DNA of 64,000 nt from Candidatus Omnitrophota bacterium (GTDB lineage Bacteria; Omnitrophota; Omnitrophia; Omnitrophales; Aquincolibacteriaceae), in contig DAOPYQ010000002.1 of assembly GCA_035352955.1 (NCBI GenBank), forward strand, positions 233,267 through 297,266, given 5' to 3'. This document shows, piece by piece, positions 2,686 to 30,638 of the stretch. Positions within the stretch are counted from its first letter, which is position 1; each line of letters begins with the position of its first letter. The notes under the pieces were generated by a model. That model saw only the letters and a list, made by a program, of their open reading frames with translations. It had not been told where the DNA came from and searched no databases. The translations under genes and the position numbers were made by a program.

Positions 2686-3833
2686 GACATCCTGTGGATG
2701 ATCTTTTTTCCGAGACGCTGGAACGGCTGCTCGATCCACCGGTAGGTCAGTGCGGAAATAGCAAGCGTTCCCACAAGCCCCACCAGAAAGATCATAAAAA
2801 AGTACAGGTTGGGGTGAAACGACGGATTGAACTTCTTCGCAAAACCGAACCAGAACCGGGTGAAACGGTCCAGGACAAAAAAATGACAGAGGTACGCACT
2901 AAAACTCACCTTCCCGACAAACCGGGTGAACCGGTTCACGAAGAAGGAAAACGGCCGCAAGGCAAGCGCCCAGGCCAGGAACAGGAACCCCGCACCGTGG
3001 ATGATGTGCGGCGGGATGACATCCCATTTCAGCTTGAAAAAACTTTCCATCAATAAACAATAAGCGCACAAGACAAGCAACACCCCCGCCGAGACAAGAT
3101 CCTTTTGTCGCGAACCCTCCGTCGCTGGCGCAGCCCCCTCAAAACGGTCCCGGAGCAAATGAAACAGAATGAAACCAAAGCCAAAAACAGGGAGCTGGTT
3201 GGGGAGCCAAAAATAGAGAAATTGACCCGCGATAAGGGGGTCTTTCGAAGGCGAAATCCATTGCTCGCCCAAAAAATTCGCCCCGAGCCGAAAAACCATC
3301 AAAAGGGCCAAGAGCAGCATGGATTTTTTGAGGCTCGAAACATACTTAAAGAAGAACGGGAGCAGGAGATAGAAATTCATCTCCACAGCAATGCTCCAGC
3401 CCCCCGGAACGACATTGTTGATGGTGTCGGGATTCCAGCCGTTCACGAACAGACAGGTCGATAAAACCCGCCAGAACGTGATCTCGTACGGAGGGGCGTA
3501 CAGCTGCTTGAACCCGGTGATCGCGATGTAAAAAAAGGCGGCCGCCCAAAACATCGGCGCGATCCTGAAAAAACGCCGGATAAAAAAGGCCCGGACGTGA
3601 CCGTCGCCTTTCTCTTTCCGGACATGGAAGGAATAAAAAAGCGTGAAGGCGGACACCACAAAAAAAAGCTGCACCCCGAACCGTACTGCCTGAGTCCACT
3701 CCGAAACGGCATTGGCGAACGGAATGCGTTGATCGGTGTGAACGAGAAGGACCAGCAGAAACGCCCAGCCGCGCAAGGCATCGATGAAGTCGAACTGCCG
3801 GAACTCTCTCAGCGCTTTTTCGTCATTACTCAT
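2682..3833 (-). CDS. Acyltransferase family 3 (OafA/OpgC-like) integral membrane protein
   Basis: 383 aa with about 10 hydrophobic helices. The N-terminal FDFIDALRGWAFLLVLLVH motif is typical of acyltransferase_3. Confidence 0.6.
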   Translation of the reverse strand: MSNDEKALREFRQFDFIDALRGWAFLLVLLVHTDQRIPFANAVSEWTQAVRFGVQLFFVVSAFTLFYSFHVRKEKGDGHVRAFFIRRFFRIAPMFWAAAFFYIAITGFKQLYAPPYEITFWRVLSTCLFVNGWNPDTINNVVPGGWSIAVEMNFYLLLPFFFKYVSSLKKSMLLLALLMVFRLGANFLGEQWISPSKDPLIAGQFLYFWLPNQLPVFGFGFILFHLLRDRFEGAAPATEGSRQKDLVSAGVLLVLCAYCLLMESFFKLKWDVIPPHIIHGAGFLFLAWALALRPFSFFVNRFTRFVGKVSFSAYLCHFFVLDRFTRFWFGFAKKFNPSFHPNLYFFMIFLVGLVGTLAISALTYRWIEQPFQRLGKKIIHRMS

Positions 3834-5274
3834 AATGTTGCTCTTCCGAGGCCGCCTTCAGCGCTTTCATCAACGCTTTCGCTTTGTGCAGCGTCTCTTC
3901 GTATTCTTTTTCCGGATCGGAATCATGGACGATCCCGGCTCCGACCTGCAGATGCCCGCGATCTTTCCGGAGAATCATCGTCCGGATCACGATATTGAGA
4001 TCCATGTCCCCGCACAGATCGATATAACCGAGCGACCCGGTATAGATCCCGCGCCGCACAGGCTCAAGCGCGTCGATGATCTCCATGCACCGGATCTTCG
4101 GGCACCCGGTGATGGTCCCGCCGGGGAAGATCGCCCGGACAAGATCAAAGGCGTCTTTCCCTTTTTTCAGCCGGCCGGTGATCTTCGAGACAATATGGAC
4201 GACATGGGAATATTTCTCAAGCGTCATGAATTCCCGGACCTTCACCGAGCGGTAATCGCACACGCGGCCGAGATCGTTCCTCTCGAGATCCACGAGCATC
4301 AAATGCTCTGCCCGCTCTTTGGGATTCCTCAAAAGCTTTTGACGCCATACCGCGGGGCGGTTCCTCTCCCCGCCCGAAGGACAAGTCCCGGCGATCGGAC
4401 GCGTTTCACAGATGCGTCCCGTTTTACGGATCAGCCTTTCCGGAGAACTGCTGATGATCTCGAGGTCCCCCACCCGGAAGAAACAGGAAAAAGGCGACGG
4501 ATTGATCGCCCTGAGTTTTCCGTAAAGCGCGGCCGGAGATCCGGAAAATCCGAACCGGAACCGCTGCGAAAGGTTCGCCTGATAAATATCTCCCGCCGCG
4601 ATGTAGTCCTTGGCTTTTTCCACCATCGCCTTGAACCGCCGCTTCGGCATCTCCGGCACGATCTCCTTCAAATGGAAAGGTTGCGATTTTACCGGCAGAG
4701 TCTCGAAGAATTTTTTTAATTTTTCGCAGCGTTCCCTGCACGTCTTGGCATTTTTAAAAACGTTCCGGCGGGAGGCACGCTGCGCGTCATACGCTACGAG
4801 GTAATAAACACGCCGGTGATGGTCATAAACGATCACCTCCCTGAAAAGGCCAAGGTGAAGCCGCGGAATCCCCAGTTCTTTTTTGGGACGGAAACCGATT
4901 TTGTCGCAAAGCTCCGCAAGCTCATAGCCGAAGTAACCGACAAACCCTCCGGTAAAGAACGGGTACTCCTTCCCGGACGAGCTGCGGTAACGCCGGAATA
5001 TCTTTTTAAGCGCGGCGAACGACTCCGCTGCCGGATATGTTTCGCGGGATTCCCCCGCAACGCGAAGCGAGGTTCCCTCTAACCGGACCTCGAGAACAGG
5101 GTCCATCCCGATGTAGGAATAAATCTGATCCGGCGGAGCGTATTGAGGAGAGTCGAGAAAAAAACAGGTTTTCGACGTTGCGTAAACCGCGCGAAAAACT
5201 TCCCACGGGGTTTTGGAAGATCGGAACTGTTCAACGTGAAGCGGCATAGGATGCAGCCCAAAGTAAAAAGACAC
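3826..5274 (-). CDS. pabB: Chorismate-utilising enzyme, aminodeoxychorismate synthase component I (PabB) or anthranilate synthase component I family
   Basis: 482 aa with the C-terminal chorismate-binding signature GGTITGCPKIRCMEIIDALEPVRRGIYTGSLGY. Confidence 0.75.
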   Translation of the reverse strand: MSFYFGLHPMPLHVEQFRSSKTPWEVFRAVYATSKTCFFLDSPQYAPPDQIYSYIGMDPVLEVRLEGTSLRVAGESRETYPAAESFAALKKIFRRYRSSSGKEYPFFTGGFVGYFGYELAELCDKIGFRPKKELGIPRLHLGLFREVIVYDHHRRVYYLVAYDAQRASRRNVFKNAKTCRERCEKLKKFFETLPVKSQPFHLKEIVPEMPKRRFKAMVEKAKDYIAAGDIYQANLSQRFRFGFSGSPAALYGKLRAINPSPFSCFFRVGDLEIISSSPERLIRKTGRICETRPIAGTCPSGGERNRPAVWRQKLLRNPKERAEHLMLVDLERNDLGRVCDYRSVKVREFMTLEKYSHVVHIVSKITGRLKKGKDAFDLVRAIFPGGTITGCPKIRCMEIIDALEPVRRGIYTGSLGYIDLCGDMDLNIVIRTMILRKDRGHLQVGAGIVHDSDPEKEYEETLHKAKALMKALKAASEEQHYE

Positions 5275-5312
5275 AGGGGACAGGCAGTCAATGAATGCCT
5301 GTCCCCTGTCTG
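5272..5312. terminator. Bidirectional terminator hairpin of a recurring family GGGGACAGGCA-N9-TGCCTGTCCCC
   Basis: ggggacaggcagtcaatgaatgcctgtcccctgtctgttttt lies between convergent/tandem minus-strand genes. Confidence 0.6.
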
Positions 5313-5318
5313 TTTTTA

Positions 5319-6644
5319 TTAGTCTTTATGCGAATAAAAGACGAGGCCGCTTGCGAGCTTGGGATAGAAATACGTCGACTTTTGCGGCATGCGCTCGTTC
5401 ACCGCGCCCATTTTCTCGAGCATCCCCACTTCGGGGGCCTGGAGAAAGAACGCGGCTTGGGCATTCTGCTTTTTCATAACATCCATCGTCCCGTCAACCG
5501 TATGATCGAAACGGAGAACGGATTCCCATTTTGTCTCGGGAAGATCGAGAAGCTTCGCGAAGATCAAGTGCCCGAGCATGTTCACGTTCAGATCGAACCA
5601 GACCTCCGGCTTTTCCTGTGCGACCTTCTGCCGGGCCTGGGCTTTGTCGAGAAGCTTGAGGAGGAACGTCCCGCCGCTTTTCAGCGTCAGACCGAACGTC
5701 ATCGGCTCCGTAGCTCTGGAAAGGACCATCGCTTCAATATCTCGAAGAGTGGCTTTTTCGACCTTAAAAAATCCTTCGAGCCGCTTGAGGATCTCCGCAT
5801 CGCTCATTCCGACGTCCAGAAGAATGCGGTGCGTAGGAAGCACGATAAATCCCGGGTCCTGAAAACTTACAAGCGCCATGTACCCGTAATCGGAAGGATA
5901 GGCTCCCGGAGGAGCGGCCAGCAATTCCTGCCGCTTGAGACGCGAATACTCGAGGTTCGTTTCGTAGCGATGGTGCCCATCGGCAATATAGACCTTTTTG
6001 GATTTCAAGCCTTCGTGGATCTTCGCGATGACACCGGCATCGCGGATCACAAGCAGACTGTGCTTGATCCCGTCATCGTCCGTAGCTGCAAAAACCGGAA
6101 CGGAGGTCTTGGGATCGACAAGCAGTTTGTGGATCGCTAAATTTTCGTCCTTGTAGAGCCCGAATACCGGAGAAAAGTTGGTCTGGGTCGTCTTCAGGAC
6201 CTTCATCCGGTCCACTTTGGGACCGCTCAACGTCTTTTCGTGAGGGACGATGATGCCTTTTTCAAAAGGTTCGAGTTTAACGCGGCCTAAAAGCGCCATG
6301 CGCCGCTTGGCGATCCCGGTAAGGGGATCCTTGAAATCCTGCGTATAAACATAAAAAGCAGGCTCTTTTTCTTTCGTGAGAAATCCCTGTTTGCACCATT
6401 CATTGAAAAAATCTCGGGCGCGGGTATAGGTGTTCTGTTGTTCGTTATCCGAGGCTTCCTTCTTATTCAGGACGAGCCGGACGCAATTCTGCGGGGAACG
6501 TTCGTAAAGCTTCTGCTGCTTTTCGGGAGAAATAACATCGTACGGGGGTGCAAGAACCAGGGAAACATCGATCTTTCGGGGATCGTAATGCCAAGCTTTC
6601 AGGGGCTGAAAATCAAGTACGGTATCGGTCGCGCAATGTGTCAT
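5319..6644 (-). CDS. DUF1015-family protein
   Basis: 441 aa. The N-terminus LKAWHYDPRKI...VLAPPYDVIS resembles the DUF1015 family. Confidence 0.5.
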   Translation of the reverse strand: MTHCATDTVLDFQPLKAWHYDPRKIDVSLVLAPPYDVISPEKQQKLYERSPQNCVRLVLNKKEASDNEQQNTYTRARDFFNEWCKQGFLTKEKEPAFYVYTQDFKDPLTGIAKRRMALLGRVKLEPFEKGIIVPHEKTLSGPKVDRMKVLKTTQTNFSPVFGLYKDENLAIHKLLVDPKTSVPVFAATDDDGIKHSLLVIRDAGVIAKIHEGLKSKKVYIADGHHRYETNLEYSRLKRQELLAAPPGAYPSDYGYMALVSFQDPGFIVLPTHRILLDVGMSDAEILKRLEGFFKVEKATLRDIEAMVLSRATEPMTFGLTLKSGGTFLLKLLDKAQARQKVAQEKPEVWFDLNVNMLGHLIFAKLLDLPETKWESVLRFDHTVDGTMDVMKKQNAQAAFFLQAPEVGMLEKMGAVNERMPQKSTYFYPKLASGLVFYSHKD

Positions 6645-7402: not shown

Positions 7403-8521
7403 ATGGGCAAGATCAAGATCGCCATCGTCGGAACCGGCAATTGCGCAGCGTCGCTCGTGCAAGGGATCGAATATTACCGGGCTTTGGCTAACGAAAAACT
7501 ACCCAAAAACAAGCCGGTCGATCTCATGGGACTGATGAACTACAACATGGGCGGCTATTTTCCCCATGATATCGAAGTTGTCGCGGCCTTCGACATCGAC
7601 AAGCGGAAGGTTGGCGAGCGTCTCGATGTCGCTTTGAACGCAAAACCCAATTGCGTGTGGCCCATCGGCAATCCCCTCCCCAAGAGTAAGATCCGTGTCG
7701 AGATGGGGAATATCCTCGACGGCTACTCTGAACACATGGCGAATTACGCCGAGAACCGGACGTTCGTACCCGCGAACAAAAAACCCTGCAACGTAGAAAA
7801 GGTCCTGAAGGAAAGCGGTGCAGAGGTTCTTCTCAACTATCTCCCCGTCGGCTCGCAAAAAGCCACGGAATTCTATGCCGAGGCCTGTCTGAAAACAGGT
7901 GTCAGTCTCATCAACTGCATGCCGGTCTTCATCGTCTCCAATCCGGCATGGGCGAAGCGCTTTGAAGCGAAACGGATCCCCTGCGTCGGCGACGACATCA
8001 AGGCCCAGATCGGCGCAACGGTCACACACCGCACGCTCGCGAAGCTGTTCATGGACCGCGGCGTCAAGATCGACCGCACCTACCAGCTGAACACCGGCGG
8101 GAATACAGACTTCCTGAACATGCTTAACCGCACGCGCCTGGAATCAAAAAAGATCTCCAAAACCTCCGCGGTCCAGAGCCAACTCGATGTCCCGCTCGAT
8201 CCGGACAACATCCACATCGGCCCTTCGGACTACGTTCCCTGGCAGAACGACAACAAAGTCTGCTACCTTCGTATCGAAGGCCGCGGGTTCGGCGGCTTCC
8301 CGGTGACGGCAGAAATGCGCCTCTCCGTCGAAGATTCTCCGAATAGCGCCGGCTGCTCCATCGACGCCATCCGGGCCTGCAGGATCGCACGCGACCGCAA
8401 GATCGGCGGCCCGCTCATTTCCATCTCGGCTTTTACGATGAAACATCCGCCCAAACAAATCGTGGACTACGATGCCAAGGAGCTGGTGCGCAAATTCATC
8501 CAGGGCACCTGCCCTCGGTAG
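7403..8521 (+). CDS. ino1: myo-Inositol-3-phosphate synthase (bacterial/archaeal short type)
   Basis: N-terminus MGKIKIAIVGTGNCAASLVQGIEYYR. An RBS-like AGGGAGG lies 6 nt upstream of the ATG, and the upstream region is AT-rich and promoter-like. Confidence 0.85.
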   Translation: MGKIKIAIVGTGNCAASLVQGIEYYRALANEKLPKNKPVDLMGLMNYNMGGYFPHDIEVVAAFDIDKRKVGERLDVALNAKPNCVWPIGNPLPKSKIRVEMGNILDGYSEHMANYAENRTFVPANKKPCNVEKVLKESGAEVLLNYLPVGSQKATEFYAEACLKTGVSLINCMPVFIVSNPAWAKRFEAKRIPCVGDDIKAQIGATVTHRTLAKLFMDRGVKIDRTYQLNTGGNTDFLNMLNRTRLESKKISKTSAVQSQLDVPLDPDNIHIGPSDYVPWQNDNKVCYLRIEGRGFGGFPVTAEMRLSVEDSPNSAGCSIDAIRACRIARDRKIGGPLISISAFTMKHPPKQIVDYDAKELVRKFIQGTCPR

Positions 8522-10903: not shown

Positions 10904-12268
10904 TTACGCGGTAAAACCTTCGGGGACAACATCCGACCAGATCGCCGGCATGAGACCGCCGCCGGTCGCGACGTTGATCACGCTTTCGTCGCTCAGCCGC
11001 ACAAACCCGCCCGAATACTTTCCGCCGGAAACGAGCAAGTTAAAGTTATACTTTTTGTAGGCAAAATCCAGCTTCTGGTTCACAACGACCGGAACGGTCA
11101 AGATCGGCACGGGGACCTGCTCCTGGATGACCCAATCTTCCTCTTTGAGAGCCCGATCCACGACCGCGTTCCATTCACTGTCAGGGGTCTCGCGACCGAC
11201 ATACACGCGGCGCGCACCATGGCTGCTCCCGTTCGGCTTGAGGACTAACGTCTCTTTTTCGTCCTTCAGGAAATCGATAATAAAAACCTTCCGGTTTCCG
11301 TAAAAATCCTCGGCATCGGCCAGACAACGTGTCCAGGGCAAGTGTTGCTGCTTCATCGTATTCTCATTCTCCGTGAAGAACCGGTCGAACTCCGGAGTCG
11401 TAAGCAGTGAAAAGATCGACTTGCTCGACGCGAGCCGGGAGCAAAGCGGATTCACCATGCAAACCGCCTTGTCTTTATAGGCCCGCACAAGATCCTGAAC
11501 TTCATCAAGGCGTTCCACGAGCTCATCAAACGCCGCGCGGCGGTAGATGAGATGGACCCGGAAACCTTTATGATAAAGTTTCCCGCCCTTGTACTGAAGT
11601 TCGCGAGGGTCCGCGATCGTCGTCTTATATCCTTTGGATTCAAAATGGCTTTTCATGGGCGTGAATTCGGCGGAGGTTCGCGCGTGGCGCCATTCCACGA
11701 TCGCGATCTGCGGCGTTTCATACCCGCCGAATTCCTCATAGACCGAAAGAAGCGTCGTCAGAATGCTCTGGACGCGCTCCGTGGAGGCGAGATGATGCTC
11801 CTCGGCGAACGGCCAGACCAGTTCTTCCGAAAGGAACGCGGATTCAAGCTGGTCCGTGTACGCGGCGCCGGCCGGAACATCGCTATTGAATTCCAGAAGT
11901 TTGAGGCTTTCCCCTTCCAGGAGCGCATCGAAGCGGCTGAAAACGACGTGCTGAGAATACCCCGGATCGATCTTCACAAGTTCTTCGGCCTCGGGAGAAA
12001 GACGGAAATGGGAGCGGAGCTGGACCTCCTCGAAATAAAGCCGCGCCGTCGTGTTAAGGATCTGATGGAACGCCGACGAAACGCGTTTGAGGAGATGGTG
12101 TTGCTTGGGCGTGACAAAATATCCTTTGTAGAACGCGGGAACGGTGAAACGGCCGAACGCGAACTGGGGGCCCTTGAGTTTTTCGCGGAATTGGAGAATG
12201 GCGGGAACAGCCTGACCGGCCTTCCCGGTCAGATACTGGTCGTAGGCGTGATCAAGATTCGCGCTCAT
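10904..12268 (-). CDS. Circularly permuted ATP-grasp type 2 family protein
   Basis: 454 aa whose length and sequence pattern resemble CP_ATPgrasp_2 proteins, which are often partnered with alpha-E/transglutaminase genes. No such partner is present here. Confidence 0.5.
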   Translation of the reverse strand: MSANLDHAYDQYLTGKAGQAVPAILQFREKLKGPQFAFGRFTVPAFYKGYFVTPKQHHLLKRVSSAFHQILNTTARLYFEEVQLRSHFRLSPEAEELVKIDPGYSQHVVFSRFDALLEGESLKLLEFNSDVPAGAAYTDQLESAFLSEELVWPFAEEHHLASTERVQSILTTLLSVYEEFGGYETPQIAIVEWRHARTSAEFTPMKSHFESKGYKTTIADPRELQYKGGKLYHKGFRVHLIYRRAAFDELVERLDEVQDLVRAYKDKAVCMVNPLCSRLASSKSIFSLLTTPEFDRFFTENENTMKQQHLPWTRCLADAEDFYGNRKVFIIDFLKDEKETLVLKPNGSSHGARRVYVGRETPDSEWNAVVDRALKEEDWVIQEQVPVPILTVPVVVNQKLDFAYKKYNFNLLVSGGKYSGGFVRLSDESVINVATGGGLMPAIWSDVVPEGFTA

Positions 12269-12285
12269 GATTGCCTATGATAAAC

Positions 12286-12332
12286 AAAAGGGGACAGGCA
12301 TTCAATCATTGCCTGTTCCCTTTTTTATTTCC
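12286..12332. terminator. Terminator hairpin of the same family
   Basis: aaaaggggacaggcattcaatcattgcctgttcccttttttatt lies downstream of the gltA stop. Confidence 0.6.
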
Positions 12333-13784: not shown

Positions 13785-16700
13785 TTAGAAATCAAATCTC
13801 GCGGTGCCGTAATACGTGTTCGAGATGAACTCGTCCTTGAGCTCCATGTCATAATTCGCCGTCAAGGTCATGTTCCCCTTGTTCAGGAACGCGAGCTCGC
13901 CGCCTAACAACAGGCCGCTCTTCGCGGGCTTGGCGCCCTTCGACACGAACGAATTTCCGCCCCCGGCAAAAGACGCCGTCGTCTCCACCTGATCCCCAAT
14001 ATAATCGTACATCCACGCCGCTTTCACCGCCGGCAGGAATGTCCCGACCTTTTTCGACACGAACGGGTACGCGAACTTCGTACCAAGAGCCTGCAGAAGC
14101 TCATTGTAACCTTCCCCCTGCACCGTCAGATTGAGTGCCCCCGCGCCATCTTCCTTGTACTTGTTGATGTTCAGATAGCTGTACTGTAACGACGCAAAAG
14201 GCGTGACCTCGAGGTCCTTCGTCGCTTTCGTCAGGAACGTATACCCCGATTCAAGCTTCGTGCTGTACTGCTGGCCGTGGTGGTCCGATTTTGCCACGCG
14301 CTTCGTCGCGGGTGTCAGCCAGATCTCACGGCGAGAATCATAATTATTCTCCGTAAAACCGAACATGCTGTCCACGTACCACGCGTTATCCCGGCGCTCT
14401 CTCACGCCGCCTTTCCCGCCGCGCTGGTTCTCTTGTAACTTGCAAAGGTTCACGGAATCATAGCTCCCGTAAAGCGTCGCCTGCCAACTATTGATGTCAT
14501 CGCTCGGACTCCCAGGCGTCTTCGCGTTCACGTTCGAGAATCCGTAACCGCCCGCCGCACCCAAACGAATGTGATCGTCCACCAGTTTATCCGCGCCGAT
14601 CGAGGTGCCGAACACGTTCGCATTAAACCCCTCGATGCCCTTGCGCGTGCCTTGCTGGATGTTGCTCCCCAAGGCCTGATACCAAAATCCCGTACCCTGG
14701 AGCATGTCCCCCGTCGAAACACCGCCCTCACCGCCCGTCCGGCCATAACCCAAGCGATTGCTAACGCTCCCTAAAAACTGGTTCGCCGTCTGCTGGCTTG
14801 CCTGCATCGTCCCCGAGCTCATGTCCGGCGTCATCGTTTCCAATGCGCTCCCGACATTCCCGGACGATTCTCCGTCCAGCGTGTTCAACACCCCGAGCAT
14901 ATCCCCTGAAGCGCCCGTAATATTATCCAGTACATCGCCCACCGCCCCAGCGTTCCCGTTCCCCGCCGGTGCGTCGCTCGCAAATCCGTTCTCCGCGCGG
15001 CTCGCCGTCAGGATCAGGATGTTCCCCGATTTCGTGCCCGTAAACGTGTACTTCGTATCCCCGAGCACGTTGATCGTCGTCGCCGTGTCGTACGTCAGCG
15101 CTCCCGTACTCGTCAGCACCGACAGCGTGCCGCCGTTCGGGATATAACCGTTCACCGTAAGATCGATCACGCCGGCCAGATTCCCCGTACCGCCTGCCGT
15201 GATCGAACCGTAACTCGACGTCGAATCCGCCGTCAGTTTCAGCGTTCCCGTCTGCGCGTAGTTCCCGCCCACCGCAAGAGCCGTCGTCCCAATATCCAGC
15301 GTCGCGCCGTTCGTCACATGCGCCGCAGCTCCCGTCCCGAGCGCACCGGCGTTACTCACCTGCACCGTCCCCGCATTGATCGACGTCGTGCCGGTGTACG
15401 TGTTCGCGCCGCTCAAGGTTAGTGTCCCCTCGTCGTTTTTTATGAGTTTACCTGTGCCCGTACCAATCACGCTATTGATCGTGGTATTGCCTGCTCCGCC
15501 TACGGTAAGCCAGAAACCAGCGCCTGTTATCGTGCCTGCGTTGCTGAGCGTGAGCGTGCCGGAATCGGACTTTATCCCGGTATCTGCACTGAGCGTCACA
15601 AGACCGGTGTAGTTGTTGTCGCCCGATACGTTCTGTAATGCACCCGAATCGCTTATTCCATAGCTGGCAAGCGAGAGGGCGTTGGCATTGGTGGTGATGA
15701 TACCTCCCTGTAGCTGCAACCCGGCGACGTTACCGCCTGTCACGCTCACGCTGCCGCTGCCCAAAGCACCATTGTTTTGGATATTCAAGACGCCCGCTGA
15801 TACCGTCGTCCCCCCACTGTAAGTATTTGCGCCGGAAAGTGTCAGCTTACTCCCGCCCGCTTTCACAAAACTGCTCGCCGCCGTGCCGCTGATCACACCG
15901 GCGTACGTCGCGTCCGCGCCCTGCGTGACCGTCAGCGCGCCCGCGCCAAGCGCCACCGTGGCGTTGCTGTCGCCCGTCAAAGTACCGATCACCTCGGTCA
16001 TCCCGTTCACATCCAGCGTGCTCCCCGCGTTCGCGATCGTTACCGCGCCGTCGTTCGCCAACACACCGCTCGCGCCCAACCTCAATGTACCTCCGTTAAT
16101 GTTTGTGCCGCCGGCATAGGTATTATTCCCCGAGAGAGTAAGCATCCCCGATCCCGTCTTCGTCAAAGCGCCGTTACTGATGGCGCCGGAGATCGCTGTC
16201 GCGCCGGAACCGTCCACCGTCAGCGTGTGCGTACCGTTATTCACATTGCCCGCCACGGAAAGCGTGTTACTGCTGCCGTTCAGCCAGGTTTGTGATGCAC
16301 CCAACACGACATTGCTATTGACCGTCAGAGCGCCCGCGGTCGCCTCAAGATTGATCGCATTGCCGGAACTGTTCAGCGTCAGCGTGTTGCCGCTGATGCT
16401 CACGGCATTCGTCCCGGCATTCATCGTCAGACTGTTGATCGTAAAATCCTGACCCAATGTGGTATCAAGATTCGTCGCGTCGGTGTAATAAAAATGAACG
16501 TCAGAGGTCGAACCCGGGATGGCATTCGCTTCAGTGCCCGATCCATTGACCCAGTTCGTAACACCGCCGGCCGTGTGATAATTCCACGCCGTACTCGTGC
16601 CGCCCTTCCAAGAGATCGGATTGGCGGGCGTGTTCACGGCCCCCGTGTAGACCACCTGAAGAAGATCCGGGCTTCCGCCGGAATTGTCCACGTCCACAAA

Positions 16701-19508
16701 GCTGATGCTAAAAGAACCGTTCGTGCAGCCGGCGCCGGTGCAAGCGATGCTGTTGGTCCCGGTGAAATTGCCGTCCGCCAGAGTGAATTTGTTAGTCGCA
16801 AAACCGCTGATACCGCCCGAAGCGCTGGCAATGGTCCAGGTATAATTCTGGTATTTGTTAAAATCCGCCAAGGCCCCGGTGGCGGTGATATCGATCTCGA
16901 AGGTGTTGGCCGGAAAAACACCCGGAGTCGAAGCGATCGTCAGAACGTTGCCGACGCCGCCGGTGATGTTCTGGAGATCCCAGTTGGTGCCCGCGACGCC
17001 AACGGCGTTCGCGATCTCCCAGGTATACGTCCCGCCGTCACTGTAAGTAACATTGCCGGCGGTCGTGAGCGTTCCCGGGCTGTTCCCCGGAGCAAGCGTG
17101 CCGCCGCTTGCGATCGTCAGGTCGCCGGTCGTGCCGGTCCCCGAAAGCGTCCCCGCCGTCTGCACCGTCGTAAGAGAACTTTCCGCAATGGAACCATCCA
17201 CCACCAGCGTCCCCGCGTTCACGTTCGTCGCGCCCGTATACATATTCGCGCCGGAAAGCGTCACAGTCCCCGAAGTCGTCTTGGTCAATCCCGCATCTCC
17301 GGCCAAGATCGTTGACGAGGAACCGCTTTGAGCATCGATCGTGTTGACGCTCGTCAAAGTCCCCGACCCGCTCACCGCGCCGCCCGCAAGAATAAGCGTG
17401 CCGATGGTTTCATCCTTGCCGTTCTGGTCAAAAGTTCCGCCGTTAAGCGTCACGGTGGCGCCGTCCCAGATCTGAAGATTGTTCGTGCCGTTCAGCCGTA
17501 ACGTCCCGTCGTTGACGACCACGCGCGACGTCGCATTAAAACCCGCGCCGGTCTTTGCCAATACCAGTGTGCCGGCATCGACCGTCGTCGCGAGACTCGT
17601 GTTGTCCGTACTTCCGCTCAGCGTCAGAGTGCCCTCGCCGGTTTTATCCAGGATCTGGAAGCCGGCTCCGGAGGAACCGATCACGGAACCGGAAAGAGTG
17701 AGCGCTGTGGTGACATCCACGGTGCTGGTTCCCGTCACCTGAATTTGTCCGGACATGCTGTTCGTTCCGGAACTTGACGAAAGAGTGCTGCCGCCGGCAA
17801 GCGTCAAGCCTTCATTCCCCACCCCGAAAGTCCCGTTAAGATCCAGTGTGCCCCCGTTCCCAACCGAAGTTGCGCCTACCGTGCTGCCCAATCCCGTCGC
17901 TGAAGTGATCCGCAACGTGCCATGGCTGATCGTGGTCGCGCCATCATAGGTATTCGCCCCGGAAAGTGTTACTGCGTCGTCCCCGTCCTTGGTCACACCT
18001 CCCGATCCTTTAATGTTCGATGAGACCGTACCGCTTTGGAACGTGATCCCACTGACGGTCCGAAAATCTCCGGTCACGGTACCGGCAGCACCCGCATTGA
18101 TCGTTCCAGTCTGGTCCCCGGCAGTAGGATCCGTCAGATTGAATGTCACGCTCCCATTGATCGTACCGTTGCTTTGCGATGAACCATTGAACACCCACGA
18201 AAGATCGCCGTCTGTGTAATCCCAGCCGCTCGTGTCTTCGGTCCAAGTCTCGCCATCCTCGAGCGTGAACTGCACGTCATTTGTCGCTCCTACAAAGCTG
18301 CCCGTTCCCTGAAAGATATACGGAATCCCGCCCGCATTTCCGTAGTTCCCATAATCACCGGGGTCGACCGTCTCTGCAAAAAACGCCGTGCCGGTCACCG
18401 TTCCGTCACCACCGCCGACTCCGTGGTTGGCACTCGTGTCATTGAAAATGGCATTTCCAGTGACCGTGCCACCTTCGTTCTTGGACGAATTATTGAACGT
18501 CGCATTGCCCGTGACGGTGCCGTTGAAATTACTGCTATGGTCATAAAAATAGCCGGTGCCGACGCTGCCCCAGTTCATGGCTCTCCCGTAAAGAGTAGCC
18601 GTGCCTTGGACAGAACCCTGGTTGTAGGCATCGTCCTCACTGCCAGCCGTGCCGAACGTCGCATTGCCCGTGACGGTGCTGGAGTTGACGGACAAATCAT
18701 TGAATACCCAGCTGTATACCCCATCATGGTCCGAGGTATACTGGCTCCAGCCCCCGGCGCTCGTATCGGTCGACCAGGTCTCGCCAGTCAGGGTGAATTG
18801 CACGTCATAGCCGCCATGGCCTGATGTGAACGCAGCTGTACCGGCGCTAAAATCAAGCTTTGTTCCCACACTACCAAAGTTAGTAGCGCTGGGGCCAAAG
18901 AAGCCATAGCCGGTGACGACGTTGCCGTTCCGGCTACTATCATTGAACGCACCAACGGTGACATTGCCTTCGGCGTTACTGCTTGAATCGTTAAACGTGC
19001 CGATGGTGACAGAACCTCCGTTGGTGCTCGTACCATTAAACGTACCGATAGTGGCGTTGTTGTTGTTATAGCTAGTATCAGCAAACGTTGCGATGGTGAC
19101 GGTGCCAAAGTTGAGGCTGCTGCCATAGAAATAAGCACCGTTCGTAGCAGTGAGCGTAGCTCCTGAGAATCTAATGCTGGGTGCCGTATCGCTTGTAAGA
19201 GTGTTGATGGTCGTATTCCCTGCGATCGAGATATTGGTGAGGAATATCACGTCATCCGATGCGTTAACTTCCCTGCCGAGAAGGATTGTGTGGTCGTAAT
19301 CCGAAAACCAGTTGCTCGCCGTTTCCCAGGCGTAATCCGAATCCGAATAAAAGTAGATGGGGTCCGCCGCCTGCGCCGCGGGCGTGACCGGAACGGATAA
19401 GACCATAGCGATAACCGTGGCGAACGAGATGAGTTTTTTTACCCCGTGAGAGACCGGGCTGATGGTTTTGGGAGTTTTAAAAGATAAATTGAAATATGAA
19501 GTTTTCAC
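13785..19508 (-). CDS. Autotransporter-type outer-membrane surface protein / adhesin with many passenger-domain repeats
   Basis: 1,907 aa with an N-terminal signal peptide. It has dozens of G/T/N/S-rich 'GTLTLSGANTYTGGT'-type autotransporter-associated beta-strand repeats and a C-terminal beta-barrel region ending in an aromatic F (…YYGTARFDF). Confidence 0.75.
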   Translation of the reverse strand: MKTSYFNLSFKTPKTISPVSHGVKKLISFATVIAMVLSVPVTPAAQAADPIYFYSDSDYAWETASNWFSDYDHTILLGREVNASDDVIFLTNISIAGNTTINTLTSDTAPSIRFSGATLTATNGAYFYGSSLNFGTVTIATFADTSYNNNNATIGTFNGTSTNGGSVTIGTFNDSSSNAEGNVTVGAFNDSSRNGNVVTGYGFFGPSATNFGSVGTKLDFSAGTAAFTSGHGGYDVQFTLTGETWSTDTSAGGWSQYTSDHDGVYSWVFNDLSVNSSTVTGNATFGTAGSEDDAYNQGSVQGTATLYGRAMNWGSVGTGYFYDHSSNFNGTVTGNATFNNSSKNEGGTVTGNAIFNDTSANHGVGGGDGTVTGTAFFAETVDPGDYGNYGNAGGIPYIFQGTGSFVGATNDVQFTLEDGETWTEDTSGWDYTDGDLSWVFNGSSQSNGTINGSVTFNLTDPTAGDQTGTINAGAAGTVTGDFRTVSGITFQSGTVSSNIKGSGGVTKDGDDAVTLSGANTYDGATTISHGTLRITSATGLGSTVGATSVGNGGTLDLNGTFGVGNEGLTLAGGSTLSSSSGTNSMSGQIQVTGTSTVDVTTALTLSGSVIGSSGAGFQILDKTGEGTLTLSGSTDNTSLATTVDAGTLVLAKTGAGFNATSRVVVNDGTLRLNGTNNLQIWDGATVTLNGGTFDQNGKDETIGTLILAGGAVSGSGTLTSVNTIDAQSGSSSTILAGDAGLTKTTSGTVTLSGANMYTGATNVNAGTLVVDGSIAESSLTTVQTAGTLSGTGTTGDLTIASGGTLAPGNSPGTLTTAGNVTYSDGGTYTWEIANAVGVAGTNWDLQNITGGVGNVLTIASTPGVFPANTFEIDITATGALADFNKYQNYTWTIASASGGISGFATNKFTLADGNFTGTNSIACTGAGCTNGSFSISFVDVDNSGGSPDLLQVVYTGAVNTPANPISWKGGTSTAWNYHTAGGVTNWVNGSGTEANAIPGSTSDVHFYYTDATNLDTTLGQDFTINSLTMNAGTNAVSISGNTLTLNSSGNAINLEATAGALTVNSNVVLGASQTWLNGSSNTLSVAGNVNNGTHTLTVDGSGATAISGAISNGALTKTGSGMLTLSGNNTYAGGTNINGGTLRLGASGVLANDGAVTIANAGSTLDVNGMTEVIGTLTGDSNATVALGAGALTVTQGADATYAGVISGTAASSFVKAGGSKLTLSGANTYSGGTTVSAGVLNIQNNGALGSGSVSVTGGNVAGLQLQGGIITTNANALSLASYGISDSGALQNVSGDNNYTGLVTLSADTGIKSDSGTLTLSNAGTITGAGFWLTVGGAGNTTINSVIGTGTGKLIKNDEGTLTLSGANTYTGTTSINAGTVQVSNAGALGTGAAAHVTNGATLDIGTTALAVGGNYAQTGTLKLTADSTSSYGSITAGGTGNLAGVIDLTVNGYIPNGGTLSVLTSTGALTYDTATTINVLGDTKYTFTGTKSGNILILTASRAENGFASDAPAGNGNAGAVGDVLDNITGASGDMLGVLNTLDGESSGNVGSALETMTPDMSSGTMQASQQTANQFLGSVSNRLGYGRTGGEGGVSTGDMLQGTGFWYQALGSNIQQGTRKGIEGFNANVFGTSIGADKLVDDHIRLGAAGGYGFSNVNAKTPGSPSDDINSWQATLYGSYDSVNLCKLQENQRGGKGGVRERRDNAWYVDSMFGFTENNYDSRREIWLTPATKRVAKSDHHGQQYSTKLESGYTFLTKATKDLEVTPFASLQYSYLNINKYKEDGAGALNLTVQGEGYNELLQALGTKFAYPFVSKKVGTFLPAVKAAWMYDYIGDQVETTASFAGGGNSFVSKGAKPAKSGLLLGGELAFLNKGNMTLTANYDMELKDEFISNTYYGTARFDF

Positions 19509-19605
19509 GATGTTTTCGCCTCTCCTTAGCGGACTTGCCCAACAGCAAGTCCTGTTTCTAACGGGGTGAATGATCTTAAAAGTTCCGCTAGAATTGACCC
19601 GGACG

Positions 19606-19795
19606 GCGGCCCGACCGTCCCTGAAGCCTCCGGAAGGGAAATCTCCTCCCGAACCCTTGGAAATAATGAAAGCTGAAAGTCAAATGCCGACTGTTTTCGT
19701 TATCGGCATCTTCCGCTCCGATATTGACCGCGTTATACCCCCCAGGGGGGGGGGAATCCGAAACGCAAAATCCTAAATCCAAAAAACTTTAATCC
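19606..19795. repeat. ~190-bp direct repeat, copy 1 (flanks the COG1373 ATPase gene); contains C6-A-G9 and other hairpins
   Basis: Near-identical to 21113..21302 (…gaaataatgaaagctgaaagtcaaatgccgactgtt..cgttatcggcatcttccgctccgatattgaccgcgttataccccccagggggggggaatccgaaacgcaaaatcctaaatcc…). Confidence 0.8.
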
Positions 19796-19800
19796 ACCCT

Positions 19801-20964
19801 CTATAACGGAAGAGGTCCTATTTCTTTTAATAAACTCGAAATGGAAACAGCCTTTATTTTGGGGGCCATTCTGTAATTTTGAGTACCCGCGTGGATCACG
19901 GTCAGCTCTTTGAGTTTCAGGTCGCGAAGGGCGTGCCCCATGGACGGCGTCACGGAAGGGGAGCTGGTCCGTTTGATCTCGAATCCGAGGCGGGTCCGGC
20001 CGCGGACGACCAGAAGGTCCAATTCCGCTCCCGCGTGCGTCCCCCAATAAAAACATTCTTCGGGCAAAGCGCCCAGCCGCCGGATCAGCTCATGGATTAC
20101 AAAACCTTCCCAGGAGGCCCCGATCTTGGGATGCCCTTCGAGGTCGCGAAGGGTTCTTAAATTCAAAAGGGTATGGAGCAATCCGCTGTCCAGGATATAA
20201 ACCTTGGGCGCCTTGATCTGCCGTTTTCCGATGTTTTCGTGCCAGGGCAACAGCTGTCTCACGACAAGAGCGGCGGTAAGGATGTCCAGATAATGCCGCA
20301 CCGTCGTATCCGCAACGCCAAACGCCCGGCCAAACTCCGAAGCATTCCACTGCTGTCCGTGATAGTTCGCCAACATCGACCAGAACCTTCTGAGTGTCAC
20401 GGCCCGGATACTGATCCCGAGCTGGGGCAGATCCCTTTCCAGGAAATTCTTGATAAAAAACTGCCGCCAGGCAAAGCTTTTGGCTTCCGTCCCTGCCAGA
20501 AAGGACAGGGGGAACCCCCCCCGTATCCACAACCGCTCACCGTTCTTCGCGCCAACTTCGCTTAGCGAAAACCCTCCCAGTTCATGATAGGCGATTCTCC
20601 CCGCAAGCGTTTCCGAACTTTGCCGCAAGAGTTGGGGCGAAGCGCTGCCCAGGATCAGGAACCGGGCAGGCCGCGAGGGACGGTCGGCAAGCACTCTCAG
20701 GGCCCGGAATATTTCCGGTTTTTGCTGGATCTCATCGATGACGACCAGTCCGCGGAGCTGTTTGAGCGCAAACATCGGGTCGTCCAGCCGGGAAAGGTCT
20801 TCGGAGTTTTCGAGGTCAAAAAAAGACGCGGGACCTCCTTGCGCTTTCATTAGGGTATGGGCCAAAGTCGTTTTACCGACCTGCCTTGCTCCGACGATGC
20901 CGACGACCGGATGATCGTTCAAAAAGGCTTGTAAGGTTTTTAATTCTGAAAGGCGCTTCAGCAT
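19801..20964 (-). CDS. AAA-family ATPase, COG1373 / DUF4143-type
   Basis: 387 aa with Walker A GARQVGKTT, Walker B VVIDEIQ and a C-terminal DUF4143-like region. Confidence 0.7.
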   Translation of the reverse strand: MLKRLSELKTLQAFLNDHPVVGIVGARQVGKTTLAHTLMKAQGGPASFFDLENSEDLSRLDDPMFALKQLRGLVVIDEIQQKPEIFRALRVLADRPSRPARFLILGSASPQLLRQSSETLAGRIAYHELGGFSLSEVGAKNGERLWIRGGFPLSFLAGTEAKSFAWRQFFIKNFLERDLPQLGISIRAVTLRRFWSMLANYHGQQWNASEFGRAFGVADTTVRHYLDILTAALVVRQLLPWHENIGKRQIKAPKVYILDSGLLHTLLNLRTLRDLEGHPKIGASWEGFVIHELIRRLGALPEECFYWGTHAGAELDLLVVRGRTRLGFEIKRTSSPSVTPSMGHALRDLKLKELTVIHAGTQNYRMAPKIKAVSISSLLKEIGPLPL

Positions 20965-21112
20965 GCCAAAAGGTTACCTTGAATATTCGGTTATGTCAAC
21001 CGAGAATTCAATGTTTGTTCCAACGTGAAAATCGGATGCGCCATGCTCATCCTTCAATGATACTCCTCTGATCGAAAGACTAACTCCTCGCTTCCGTTTA
21101 TGATCGGAATGC

Positions 21113-21302
21113 CGGCCCGACCGTCCCTGAAACCCACGGAAGAGAATTCTCCTCCCGAACCCTTTGAAATAATGAAAGCTGAAAGTCAAATGCCGACTGT
21201 TTCCGTTATCGGCATCTTCCGCTCCGATATTGACCGCGTTATACCCCCCAGGGGGGGGGGAATCCGAAACGCAAAATCCTAAATCCAAAAAACTTTAAAT
21301 CC
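21113..21302. repeat. ~190-bp direct repeat, copy 2
   Basis: Same sequence as 19606..19795 in the same orientation. Confidence 0.8.
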
Positions 21303-26393: not shown

Positions 26394-26650
26394 CGATATT
26401 CTCCGACTTTACGAACGACGAGCAACGGATCACGAGTAACGAGCCGCGTCACTCGTCGCTCGTGACCCGTTACTGATGCGTCAATGAGTTGCAGAAGGGA
26501 GGGAACCTTAAGTCCCCCTTGCCTTAGATTTTATTCCAAAAAGGGTTGGCAAAGCTCGTCCCAATTTCAACTTCGTTGAAATTGATAGGCCTTGGGACTA
26601 CAATGCAACCCGACCCGCAATATATCTCACTGAAAGGATTCGTATTCTAT

Positions 26651-27439
26651 ATGAAGACCGCTGAAATTAAAAGAACGCTCTTGGAAGCCATCGCTCGGGC
26701 CGGAAAGATCGTCAAAGCGAATTTCGGAAAGCAGCAAAAGATCACGAAAAAGGGTGAATTCAACCTCGTCACCGAGATCGACAAAGCTTCCGAAAAAGCC
26801 GCGCTCGCGGTCATCCTCAAACGTTTCCCGGACCATTCTGTCCTTGCCGAAGAATCCCCCGAAGTGGCGGGCTCCGGCTGCCGTTGGATCATCGACCCGA
26901 TCGACGGCACCACGAACTTCGCTCATGGATTCCCCATCGTTTCGATCTCCATCGGATTTGAGCATCACGGCCGTCTCTTGATGGGCGGGGTGCTTGACCC
27001 GACGCGCGATGAACTTTTTTTCGCAGAACGCGGCCGGGGCGCTTTTCTAAACGGGAAGCGGATCCGGGTCTCGACCGCCAAAACGCTCTCGGATTCCCTT
27101 GTCGTCACGGGATTCCCCTACGACCGGAAAGAGAACCCGGAAGTCTACCTCGCCTTGCTCCGGACATTCCTCACCCGCGTCCAGTGTATCCGCCGCACAG
27201 GCTCCGCCGCGATAGACCTCTGTTACGTGGCCTGCGGGCGCTTCGACGCTTATTATGAAATGAAGCTGAGGCCCTGGGATAAGGCCGCCGGAATGATCGT
27301 CGCGGAAGAAGCGGGCGCAAAACTCACGGATTTTTCGGGAAAACCGCTCACGCTCACAAGTGTTCAGAACCTTGCGACGAACGGCCGGGTCCATCAGGAA
27401 ATGCTTCGCCTGTTGAAACCGTTCAAGAACTTAAAATAG
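26651..27439 (+). CDS. suhB: Inositol monophosphatase family protein (SuhB/ImpA)
   Basis: IMPase signatures WIIDPIDGTTNFAHGFP and a metal-binding region. The start is chosen at MKTAEIK; a longer ORF begins at 26546. Confidence 0.8.
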   Translation: MKTAEIKRTLLEAIARAGKIVKANFGKQQKITKKGEFNLVTEIDKASEKAALAVILKRFPDHSVLAEESPEVAGSGCRWIIDPIDGTTNFAHGFPIVSISIGFEHHGRLLMGGVLDPTRDELFFAERGRGAFLNGKRIRVSTAKTLSDSLVVTGFPYDRKENPEVYLALLRTFLTRVQCIRRTGSAAIDLCYVACGRFDAYYEMKLRPWDKAAGMIVAEEAGAKLTDFSGKPLTLTSVQNLATNGRVHQEMLRLLKPFKNLK

Positions 27440-30578: not shown

Positions 30579-30599
30579 TGAATGCAAAAAAAAGGGAAC

Positions 30600-30632
30600 A
30601 GACAATGATGGCATGCCTGTCCCCTTTTTAAC
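30600..30632. terminator. Terminator hairpin, diverged member of the same family
   Basis: aaaaaaaagggaacagacaatgatggcatgcctgtccccttttt lies downstream of the pyrE stop. Confidence 0.45.
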
Positions 30633-30638
30633 TTAAGA

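Follow-up and report, generated by a model that had tools for sequence, protein, structure and literature searches.

An nhaA-I riboswitch aptamer at the edge of a direct repeat pair that encloses a mobile DUF4143 ATPase gene in Candidatus Omnitrophota

Riboswitch aptamers of the nhaA-I motif, or Li+-I class (Rfam RF03057; Weinberg et al. 2017, PMC5737381; White et al. 2022, PMC9646797), are published in front of cation antiporter or osmoprotectant genes such as nhaA, nhaD and otsA, and a U.G pair closing helix P2 marks the Li+-responsive majority of the class (PMC9646797). Rare Na+-responsive variants (Na+-II), described from Deltaproteobacteria only, carry a C at the P2 closing position and use an intrinsic terminator as their platform, and one of them, in Desulfobulbus propionicus, precedes a ‘hypothetical’ gene unrelated to ion transport (White et al. 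2022, PMC9646797). A second described system, PDC-S01, combines a COG1373 ATPase with PD-(D/E)XK and is a very common, repeatedly transferred phage-defence candidate that is still unvalidated (PMC12988326). Here, we analysed a 64,000-nt stretch of a Candidatus Omnitrophota genome (the window; GenBank assembly GCA_035352955.1, contig DAOPYQ010000002.1, positions 233,267 to 297,266 of the forward strand) in which two direct repeats enclose one DUF4143 ATPase gene and a complete nhaA-I aptamer straddles the edge of the repeat copy that faces an autotransporter gene.

The explanation that we favour, with a probability of roughly 0.6, is that a promoter and leader with an nhaA-I riboswitch became duplicated around a mobile ATPase gene, the repeats being the scar of this rearrangement. 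The first-pass annotation of the window had already pointed to direct repeats around exactly one DUF4143 ATPase gene, which is borne out, and had read the repeat on the opposite strand; all features of the repeat read on the minus strand. The parts that carry the argument are the following.

13785..19508, minus strand: autotransporter gene, 1907 aa, with PATR repeats (PF12951) and a C-terminal beta-domain (PF03797)
19601..19656, minus strand: complete nhaA-I (Li+-I class) riboswitch aptamer, Rfam RF03057, 53.9 bits, E 7.7e-8
19607..19792, minus strand: repeat copy A (R-A), starting 1-10 nt past the ATPase stop codon and ending inside the riboswitch aptamer
19801..20964, minus strand: DUF4143/AAA_14 ATPase gene, 387 aa, PF13173 at 1.6e-23 and PF13635 at 1e-42, intact
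21106..21162, minus strand: truncated and decayed copy B aptamer, which at 22.6 bits stays under the gathering score and has four non-canonical pairs
21113..21298, minus strand: repeat copy B (R-B), 100 nt past the stop codon of the FAA-hydrolase gene and 148 nt upstream of the ATPase ATG

The only Rfam family matched in the whole window is nhaA-I, and the curated gathering score of RF03057 is 37 bits. In the copy A aptamer, P1 is formed by 19652-19645/19637-19630 and P2 by 19620-19614/19607-19601 with the loop CGGGCC; every P1 and P2 pair is canonical, the conserved GGGU, the AGG junction and GGUCGGGCCGCC are present, and the sequence folds into two hairpins at -26.4 kcal/mol. The single deviation in P2 (U39C/A52G, U-A to C-G) is a compensatory change. 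When metagenomes were scanned for aptamers that carry precisely this P2 variant, 41 loci came up, and 15 of the 16 loci tested exceed the gathering score (16 matches at 44-55 bits, one locus with two and one with none). Since these aptamers with the identical P2 variant score above the threshold and precede NhaA (PF06965) and Na_H_Exchanger (PF00999) genes, the sequence type of copy A can be taken as a genuine member of the class. By its score, helix pairing, conserved bases and same-strand position 5' of a gene, the copy A aptamer is, as far as sequence can tell, a bona fide member of the known nhaA-I/Li+-I class in an unusual host phylum and before an unusual target gene.

Compared with published nhaA-I/Li+-I riboswitches, the locus shares the two-hairpin aptamer, the conserved elements, the U.G closing pair of P2 (GGUCGGGCC) and the sense 5' position. 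It differs from them in its target, which is a giant autotransporter and neither a cation transporter nor an osmotic-stress gene, in its host, in the 92 nt between aptamer and start codon, in the want of an evident platform and in the truncated second copy. Like the Na+-II variant of D. propionicus, the aptamer precedes a gene unrelated to ion transport, whereas the P2 closing position is U here and the phylum is another one. An identity as Na+-II was considered for copy A and rejected, because the P2 closing U is retained and no terminator-like site occurs on the minus strand between 19600 and 19509.

Many high-GC nhaA-I aptamers among the fetched metagenome loci (L111, L118, L125, L126, L133, L134 and L138) are followed, about 8-22 nt downstream and in place of nhaA, by a small open reading frame (ORF) of 68-79 aa with one hydrophobic segment (e.g. 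MPRGPVVASSVPFLVAFVGLALCTWRFRAQ). Such small ORFs may account for some of the genes listed as ‘hypothetical’ in the published gene table.

The relation of the aptamer to the repeat boundary distinguishes the two copies. Identity between them ends at 19607|19606, one base into the P2 3' arm, and R-A together with the next 6 nt completes the aptamer, which thus spans the junction between R-A and unique sequence. In copy B, unrelated sequence replaces the P2 3' arm at the repeat boundary, P2 is lost in the fold (-17.7 vs -26.4 kcal/mol for copy A), the first P1 pair is broken and the conserved A of the AGG junction is changed, so that copy B, with 22.6 vs 37 bits, falls outside RF03057. Copy B is a pseudo-aptamer, a secondary and decaying copy; the downstream junction of copy A must be the ancestral one, because the intact aptamer crosses it into unique sequence. 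The seven substitutions between the copies are confined to the 91 nt on the aptamer side, the other 95 nt being free of them (Fisher p = 0.006), and five of the seven fall inside the 50 aptamer bases of the repeat (p = 0.016). The contrast between a perfect copy A and a decayed copy B offers indirect evidence that selection on copy A is ongoing, and the pair makes a natural control in which the same sequence decays once its 3' arm is lost and is kept when complete.

Downstream of copy A, the aptamer lies in sense 92 nt upstream of the autotransporter start codon, a GTG at 19508, a spacing within the range at other nhaA-I loci (+2 to +94 nt). From its position and conservation, we infer that the autotransporter is the gene placed under the control of the aptamer, which probably makes autotransporter expression respond to an alkali cation. 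The leader and the parts of the repeat upstream of the aptamer are as follows.

19509..19600, minus strand: unique leader from aptamer to start codon, with two hairpins, the Shine-Dalgarno sequence AAGGAGAGG and the GTG start
19663..19690, minus strand: candidate host promoter TCGGCA-16-CATTAT, a consensus match whose predicted transcription start is about the first aptamer base
19698..19799, minus strand: 5' part of the repeat, 100% identical in both copies, with the C10-T-G6 tract and a TATAAC box
19738..19754: C6-A-G10 tract (C10-T-G6 on the minus strand), of equal length in both copies and in three assemblies

The tract had been described as an unusual C6-A-G9 stem and is in fact one base longer. 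The C6-A-G10 tracts of the two copies are the only runs of G or C of at least 9 nt in the 64 kb. Promoters of surface proteins can be phase-variable through homopolymer tracts, as in porA and opc of Neisseria and fim of Bordetella. The present locus resembles these in having a 10-nt G/C run and a TATAAC box upstream of an autotransporter gene, and differs in that no variation of tract length was seen in either copy or among the three assemblies, and in that the promoter here is a candidate only.

The repeats themselves are well delimited. A clean blastn core pairs 19607-19792 with 21113-21298 over 186 nt at 96.2% identity (seven substitutions), a repeat-finding program reports a longer pair at 19595-19792 and 21101-21298 (198 nt, 94%), and if one 1-nt insertion or deletion is allowed the match extends by about 8 nt to 19799, 1-2 nt past the ATPase stop codon. 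The earlier placement of the repeats therefore stands, except that its copy A was shifted by one base relative to copy B. Sequence outside both repeat ends shows no homology between the copies. Chance can be excluded as the origin of the pair, since a 39-nt piece is present twice against none expected.

The unit occurs exactly twice within the window. Further copies, which the first-pass annotation had suggested looking for in the genome, were found neither in the window nor in metagenome, plasmid or phage searches, whose power outside the window is limited: a metagenome scan with the translated repeat gave no match in a collection that apparently does not contain this organism, and the plasmid and phage collections held no further copy. 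An ORF called inside copy B is a singleton in the protein clusters, and an exhaustive search of representative proteins recovered only this ORF and an unrelated repetitive protein (P0362).

The enclosed gene has the full-length signature of its family. It matches the PADLOC candidate PDC-S01 (PDLC04790) at 1e-83, keeps the catalytic motifs (GxxGxGKT with the invariant G30-K31-T32, D77-E78 and E329-x-K331) and is under purifying selection, with a dN/dS of about 0.05 against its nearest relative, locus L089. Thousands of homologues at 66-70% identity are spread across phyla, loci of the clade with more than 70% identity number in the hundreds, and the closest relatives sit in disparate surroundings: the 92%-identical one (L089) adjoins an epimerase and a second AAA ATPase, the 89%-identical one adjoins Phd/ParE, the 87%-identical one (L092) lies among Fic, PIN-RHH, MazG and SLFN-helicase genes, and a 75%-identical one adjoins a helix-turn-helix (HTH) gene and Fur. 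Among four loci, the homologous DNA begins about 50 nt before the ATG and goes no further than the stop codon. Because relatives of 75-92% identity stand in unrelated contexts and the shared DNA is limited to promoter and coding sequence, the ATPase gene is, on this comparative evidence, a horizontally mobile promoter-plus-coding-sequence cassette. Its full-length match to PDC-S01/COG1373, both Pfam domains, the motifs and the company of its relatives among toxin-antitoxin and defence genes mark it as a PDC-S01-type defence candidate; unlike in a defence-island setting, it stands here among core-metabolism genes (IDH, aconitase, FAA-hydrolase and citrate synthase). Two further segments separate it from copy B.

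20965..21014, minus strand: cassette promoter/operator, palindrome TTGAATTCTCGG..CCGAATATTCAA around TTGACA-17-TAACCT, common to four homologous loci
21015..21112, minus strand: 98-nt segment between copy B and the cassette promoter, without a match in the window or in any fetched locus

No remnant of an HTH gene was found in the 98-nt segment. Searches around relatives of the ATPase gene returned no nhaA-I aptamer, the gene was found on no viral contig, and no solved structure was found for the protein by sequence. A 12-nt complementarity between the ATPase mRNA (20676-20687) and the P2 5' arm was discarded as being at chance level.

Several observations on the cassette stand beside these. 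An operator of the form TTGAAT(A)T(T)CG-N-TTGACA-N-CGAATATTCAA overlaps the ATPase promoter at 20970-21014 of the window, at 9951-10000 of L089, at 4594-4644 of L092 and at 985-1030 of L175; its palindrome is free of mismatches in L175, which has a divergent XRE-type HTH gene right beside it, and suggests a repressor-controlled cassette promoter. The coding sequence holds a G8 run at 20515-20522 (codons CGG GGG GGG, read as RGG), which is the only other G/C run of at least 7 nt in the window; relatives have CGG GGA GGA, and the run might, as a contingency tract, make this defence-candidate gene prone to frameshifts. In L089, a diverged AAA_14-type ATPase gene directly 3' of the 92%-identical relative (11450-11890) makes the two tandem paralogues that share Walker-B DNA (GTCRTYATCGATGAGATCCA).

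The repeat appears to have two sources. The first ~100 nt of copy A, counted from the ATPase stop codon, are colinear with the ~105 nt after the stop codon of the L089 ATPase gene: the comparison scores 133, a value reached by 1 of 1000 dinucleotide shuffles (z 3.4), and shares the motifs TTCGG-ATTC, a G-run, GTATAA-GCGG and GCGGAA. The flanks of L089 and L092 are clearly homologous to each other (0 of 1000 shuffles, z 5.2). For the repeat against the L089 flank, a stringent-gap comparison was negative and gap-tolerant scoring with dinucleotide shuffles was positive, which sets the confidence at moderate. Synonymous sites between the cassettes are near saturation (dS 0.88), and a flank that is still detectable therefore implies constraint. 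The ~95-nt flank-like part coincides exactly with the stretch that is 100% identical between the copies, and the remaining ~91 nt comprise the candidate promoter and the first 50 nt of the aptamer. With the moderate confidence just stated, then, the repeat is probably a chimera of the 3' flank of the cassette and a host promoter with half an aptamer.

From these parts an origin of the locus may be proposed. The native unit would have consisted of promoter, nhaA-I aptamer, 92-nt leader and the 1907-aa autotransporter gene, and the ATPase cassette (operator/promoter, coding sequence and ~100 nt of 3' flank) would have been acquired immediately upstream of the native promoter. A 186-nt segment across the junction of cassette and host, in which ~95 nt of cassette flank are followed by the host promoter and by the initial 50 nt of the aptamer, would then have been copied to the upstream side of the cassette, which would give the direct repeats. 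On this account the downstream copy would be ancestral, and the upstream copy, having lost the P2 3' arm, would be decaying and would serve at most as an extra promoter for the ATPase gene. The likeliest route would be a tandem duplication of the 98-nt segment, cassette and repeat, followed by microhomology-mediated loss of the first ATPase copy; alternatively, a circle carrying the repeat may have integrated by a single crossover. Two junctions would be novel, one between the upstream unique sequence (U) and R-B and one between R-B and the 98-nt segment; an imperfect 8-nt microhomology, GG(C/T)GGATT, is present at the U|R-B and ATPase|R-A junctions.

A number of results weigh against this account of a duplicated, working riboswitch leader. 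The minus strand of the leader (19509-19600) holds no intrinsic terminator, the Shine-Dalgarno sequence lies ~72 nt from the aptamer, and the sole alternative pairing with it is weak and long-range (GCUUC of J1/2 with GAGGC of the Shine-Dalgarno sequence, 1.6 kcal/mol above the minimum free energy); the leader yielded no convincing expression platform. The P2 3' arm could be engaged only by a 4-bp CCGC/GCGG alternative pairing, identified by eye. Upstream of the three closest autotransporter homologues (36-52% identity, partial), no nhaA-I match was obtained at E up to 1, and the gene table of White et al. 2022 (PMC9646797) does not list ‘Autotransporter’. The promoters at the locus, with transcription starts predicted near 19656 and/or 19725 and at their counterparts in copy B, are consensus matches only, and the homology of the repeat to the L089 flank is weak (~62% with gaps) and is based on shuffles after several comparisons. 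For the duplication route, two events have to be assumed, and one of them must by coincidence have ended within ~2-10 nt of a stop codon. Neither an empty site nor an intermediate was found, the collections searched holding no close relative with conserved synteny: a scan of genome contigs with the FAA-hydrolase gave only matches of up to 46% identity, the closest FAA-hydrolase proteins (68-71%) have other genes downstream, and all contigs with the exact FAA-hydrolase either show the same layout or break at the repeat.

A competing reading is an aptamer that is real but a relic, stranded by a rearrangement such as the loss of an nhaA-type gene and by now regulating nothing, with the autotransporter expressed independently. 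The atypical target gene, a pairing of aptamer and target that is not conserved in relatives, the missing recognisable platform and a locus that has clearly been rearranged speak for such a relic; yet copy A keeps all pairs and conserved nucleotides at 53.9 bits, whereas copy B has accumulated five substitutions in 50 nt and dropped to 22.6 bits, and we consider the relic unlikely, if the strongest of the competitors. A far weaker one is the idea, put forward by the first-pass annotation, that the repeat is a duplicated gene for a ~190-nt small RNA (6S-like or other) between whose copies the ATPase gene was inserted. Its starting point, the several hairpins visible in the repeat, was sound in that a structured RNA is present, but this RNA is only the 56-nt nhaA-I aptamer, on the opposite strand and complete in one copy. 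When the whole unit was checked for RNA structure, the fold of the ~140-144 nt outside the aptamer was not better than that of shuffled sequence, whichever strand was taken (z -0.57 and -0.81), nhaA-I was the only Rfam family found in the repeat at E up to 10, and no further copies or homologues came to light, which together leave a small RNA gene very improbable.

The same annotation had offered an integrated mini-element with duplicated attachment sites, and the part of this proposal that concerns a mobile ATPase cassette has held up. What has to be weighed is whether the cassette moves by site-specific or otherwise dedicated recombination, the repeats being attL and attR or a long target-site duplication. 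Direct repeats do bracket exactly the cassette, the cassette is demonstrably mobile, and of the three further close-relative loci with DNA, two have their ATPase module bracketed by direct repeats of unrelated sequence (63 nt at 86% in L175; 32 and 22 nt in L092), while 162 unrelated loci, 1.94 Mb in all, contain no short intergenic repeat pair of that sort; distant plasmid homologues, moreover, often adjoin tyrosine recombinases. Against it, no recombinase or transposase lies between or beside the repeats among the ORFs scanned with Pfam, which were a part of those in the window (12 across about 0.3-39 kb, and about 18 across the window as a whole), those ORFs being housekeeping genes. The best candidate for a terminal inverted repeat of the inserted segment, an 8-mer match, was rejected because 9% of shuffles reach it. 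One end of the repeat cuts into an aptamer that is completed by unique sequence, as expected of an accidental breakpoint, and the repeat probably combines cassette flank with host sequence. No repeat flanks the gene in L089, none of six distant plasmid homologues is bracketed, so that direct repeats were dismissed as a family-wide property, and the repeats in L092 also separate other genes. With no recombinase among the scanned ORFs, no significant terminal inverted repeat and an end that is an accidental break within the aptamer, a dedicated mechanism is disfavoured and ranks somewhat below the relic in probability. A resemblance to integron attC arrays and to the attL-attR pairs of prophages and islands lies in the single gene between near-identical direct repeats and in the repeat-separated array of the relative L092; in contrast to such cassettes, the locus has no integrase among the scanned ORFs and no attC-like palindromic fold, and its repeats are unrelated in sequence between loci. 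An assembly artefact, in which a circular molecule or strain variant was mis-threaded through a shared repeat, would be the familiar weakness of short-read metagenome assemblies, which are liable to mis-joins at repeats. It can in practice be set aside, as the least probable of all, because the copies differ at seven positions and their identical core spans only 95 nt; in addition, the repeat-ATPase-repeat layout, including the C6-A-G10 tract, is the same in three independent Candidatus Omnitrophota genome assemblies of different sources, and Logan contigs end where the copies turn identical, as a true repeat predicts, with one Logan contig holding the junction of R-B and the ATPase segment.

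A broader generalisation, which we put forward as a long shot only, is that the PDC-S01 clade forms a cassette (operator/promoter, coding sequence and, 3' of it, a conserved element of ~100 nt that contains a G-run and a TATAAT box) that might insert by host promoters and repeatedly form or use local direct repeats of 63-186 nt without a recombinase of its own, and that it would here have captured the working Li+/Na+ riboswitch of an adhesin-like autotransporter.

If the aptamer works, the Li+/Na+ riboswitch class would extend to Candidatus Omnitrophota, a phylum known almost only from metagenomes, and would control a surface autotransporter without a link to ion transport, making the cation level a cue for surface or adhesion functions. 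The ATPase locus is a well-delimited example of a common uncharacterised defence-candidate gene moving as a promoter-plus-coding-sequence cassette, and three of the four close-relative loci hint at a tendency of such cassettes to be bordered by direct repeats. None of these findings overturns current knowledge.

Some repeat arrangements in other loci deserve mention in their own right. L092 carries a module array of HTH-Fic, PIN-RHH, ATPase and MazG/SLFN-helicase genes with intergenic repeats at 2282-2312, 3431-3489, 4424-4588 and 5894-5948; these shared repeats contain runs of the heptamer CGTTGNC and a TATAAG box, and the whole has the look of a cassette array, with no integrase within the 9 kb. 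In L175, a 63-nt hairpin-containing direct repeat (CGCTCCAAT...ATTGGAGCG; 410-472 and 2243-2305, 86%) brackets an HTH + ATPase module, and its downstream copy falls within the 5' region of a Fur-family gene. On a Thiothrix subterranea plasmid (L178), a 179-nt direct repeat (10-188 and 2200-2377, 97%) brackets a DUF4942 gene that lies immediately upstream of a distant DUF4143 ATPase homologue, beside a tyrosine recombinase.

Elsewhere in the window, genes for myo-inositol-1-phosphate synthase and inositol monophosphatase (7403-8521 and 26546-27439) lie in one region and could belong to an osmolyte pathway, which may be relevant if the riboswitch reports salt stress. A single ORF of 8204 aa on the minus strand (39179-63793) contains many internal repeats (families of 60-137 nt at 41600-58565, some of them 126 nt apart); giant proteins of a surface type are in keeping with an Omnitrophota origin. 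A terminator-like palindrome (AGGGGACAGGCA-loop-TGCCTGTCCCCT) followed by a T-run stands after several unrelated genes at 5275-5316, 12289-12330 and 30593-30634, and a very similar hairpin also occurs 3' of an autotransporter gene on the metagenome contig L095 (8203-8257), so that the recurrent palindrome may represent a shared terminator or a REP-like family.

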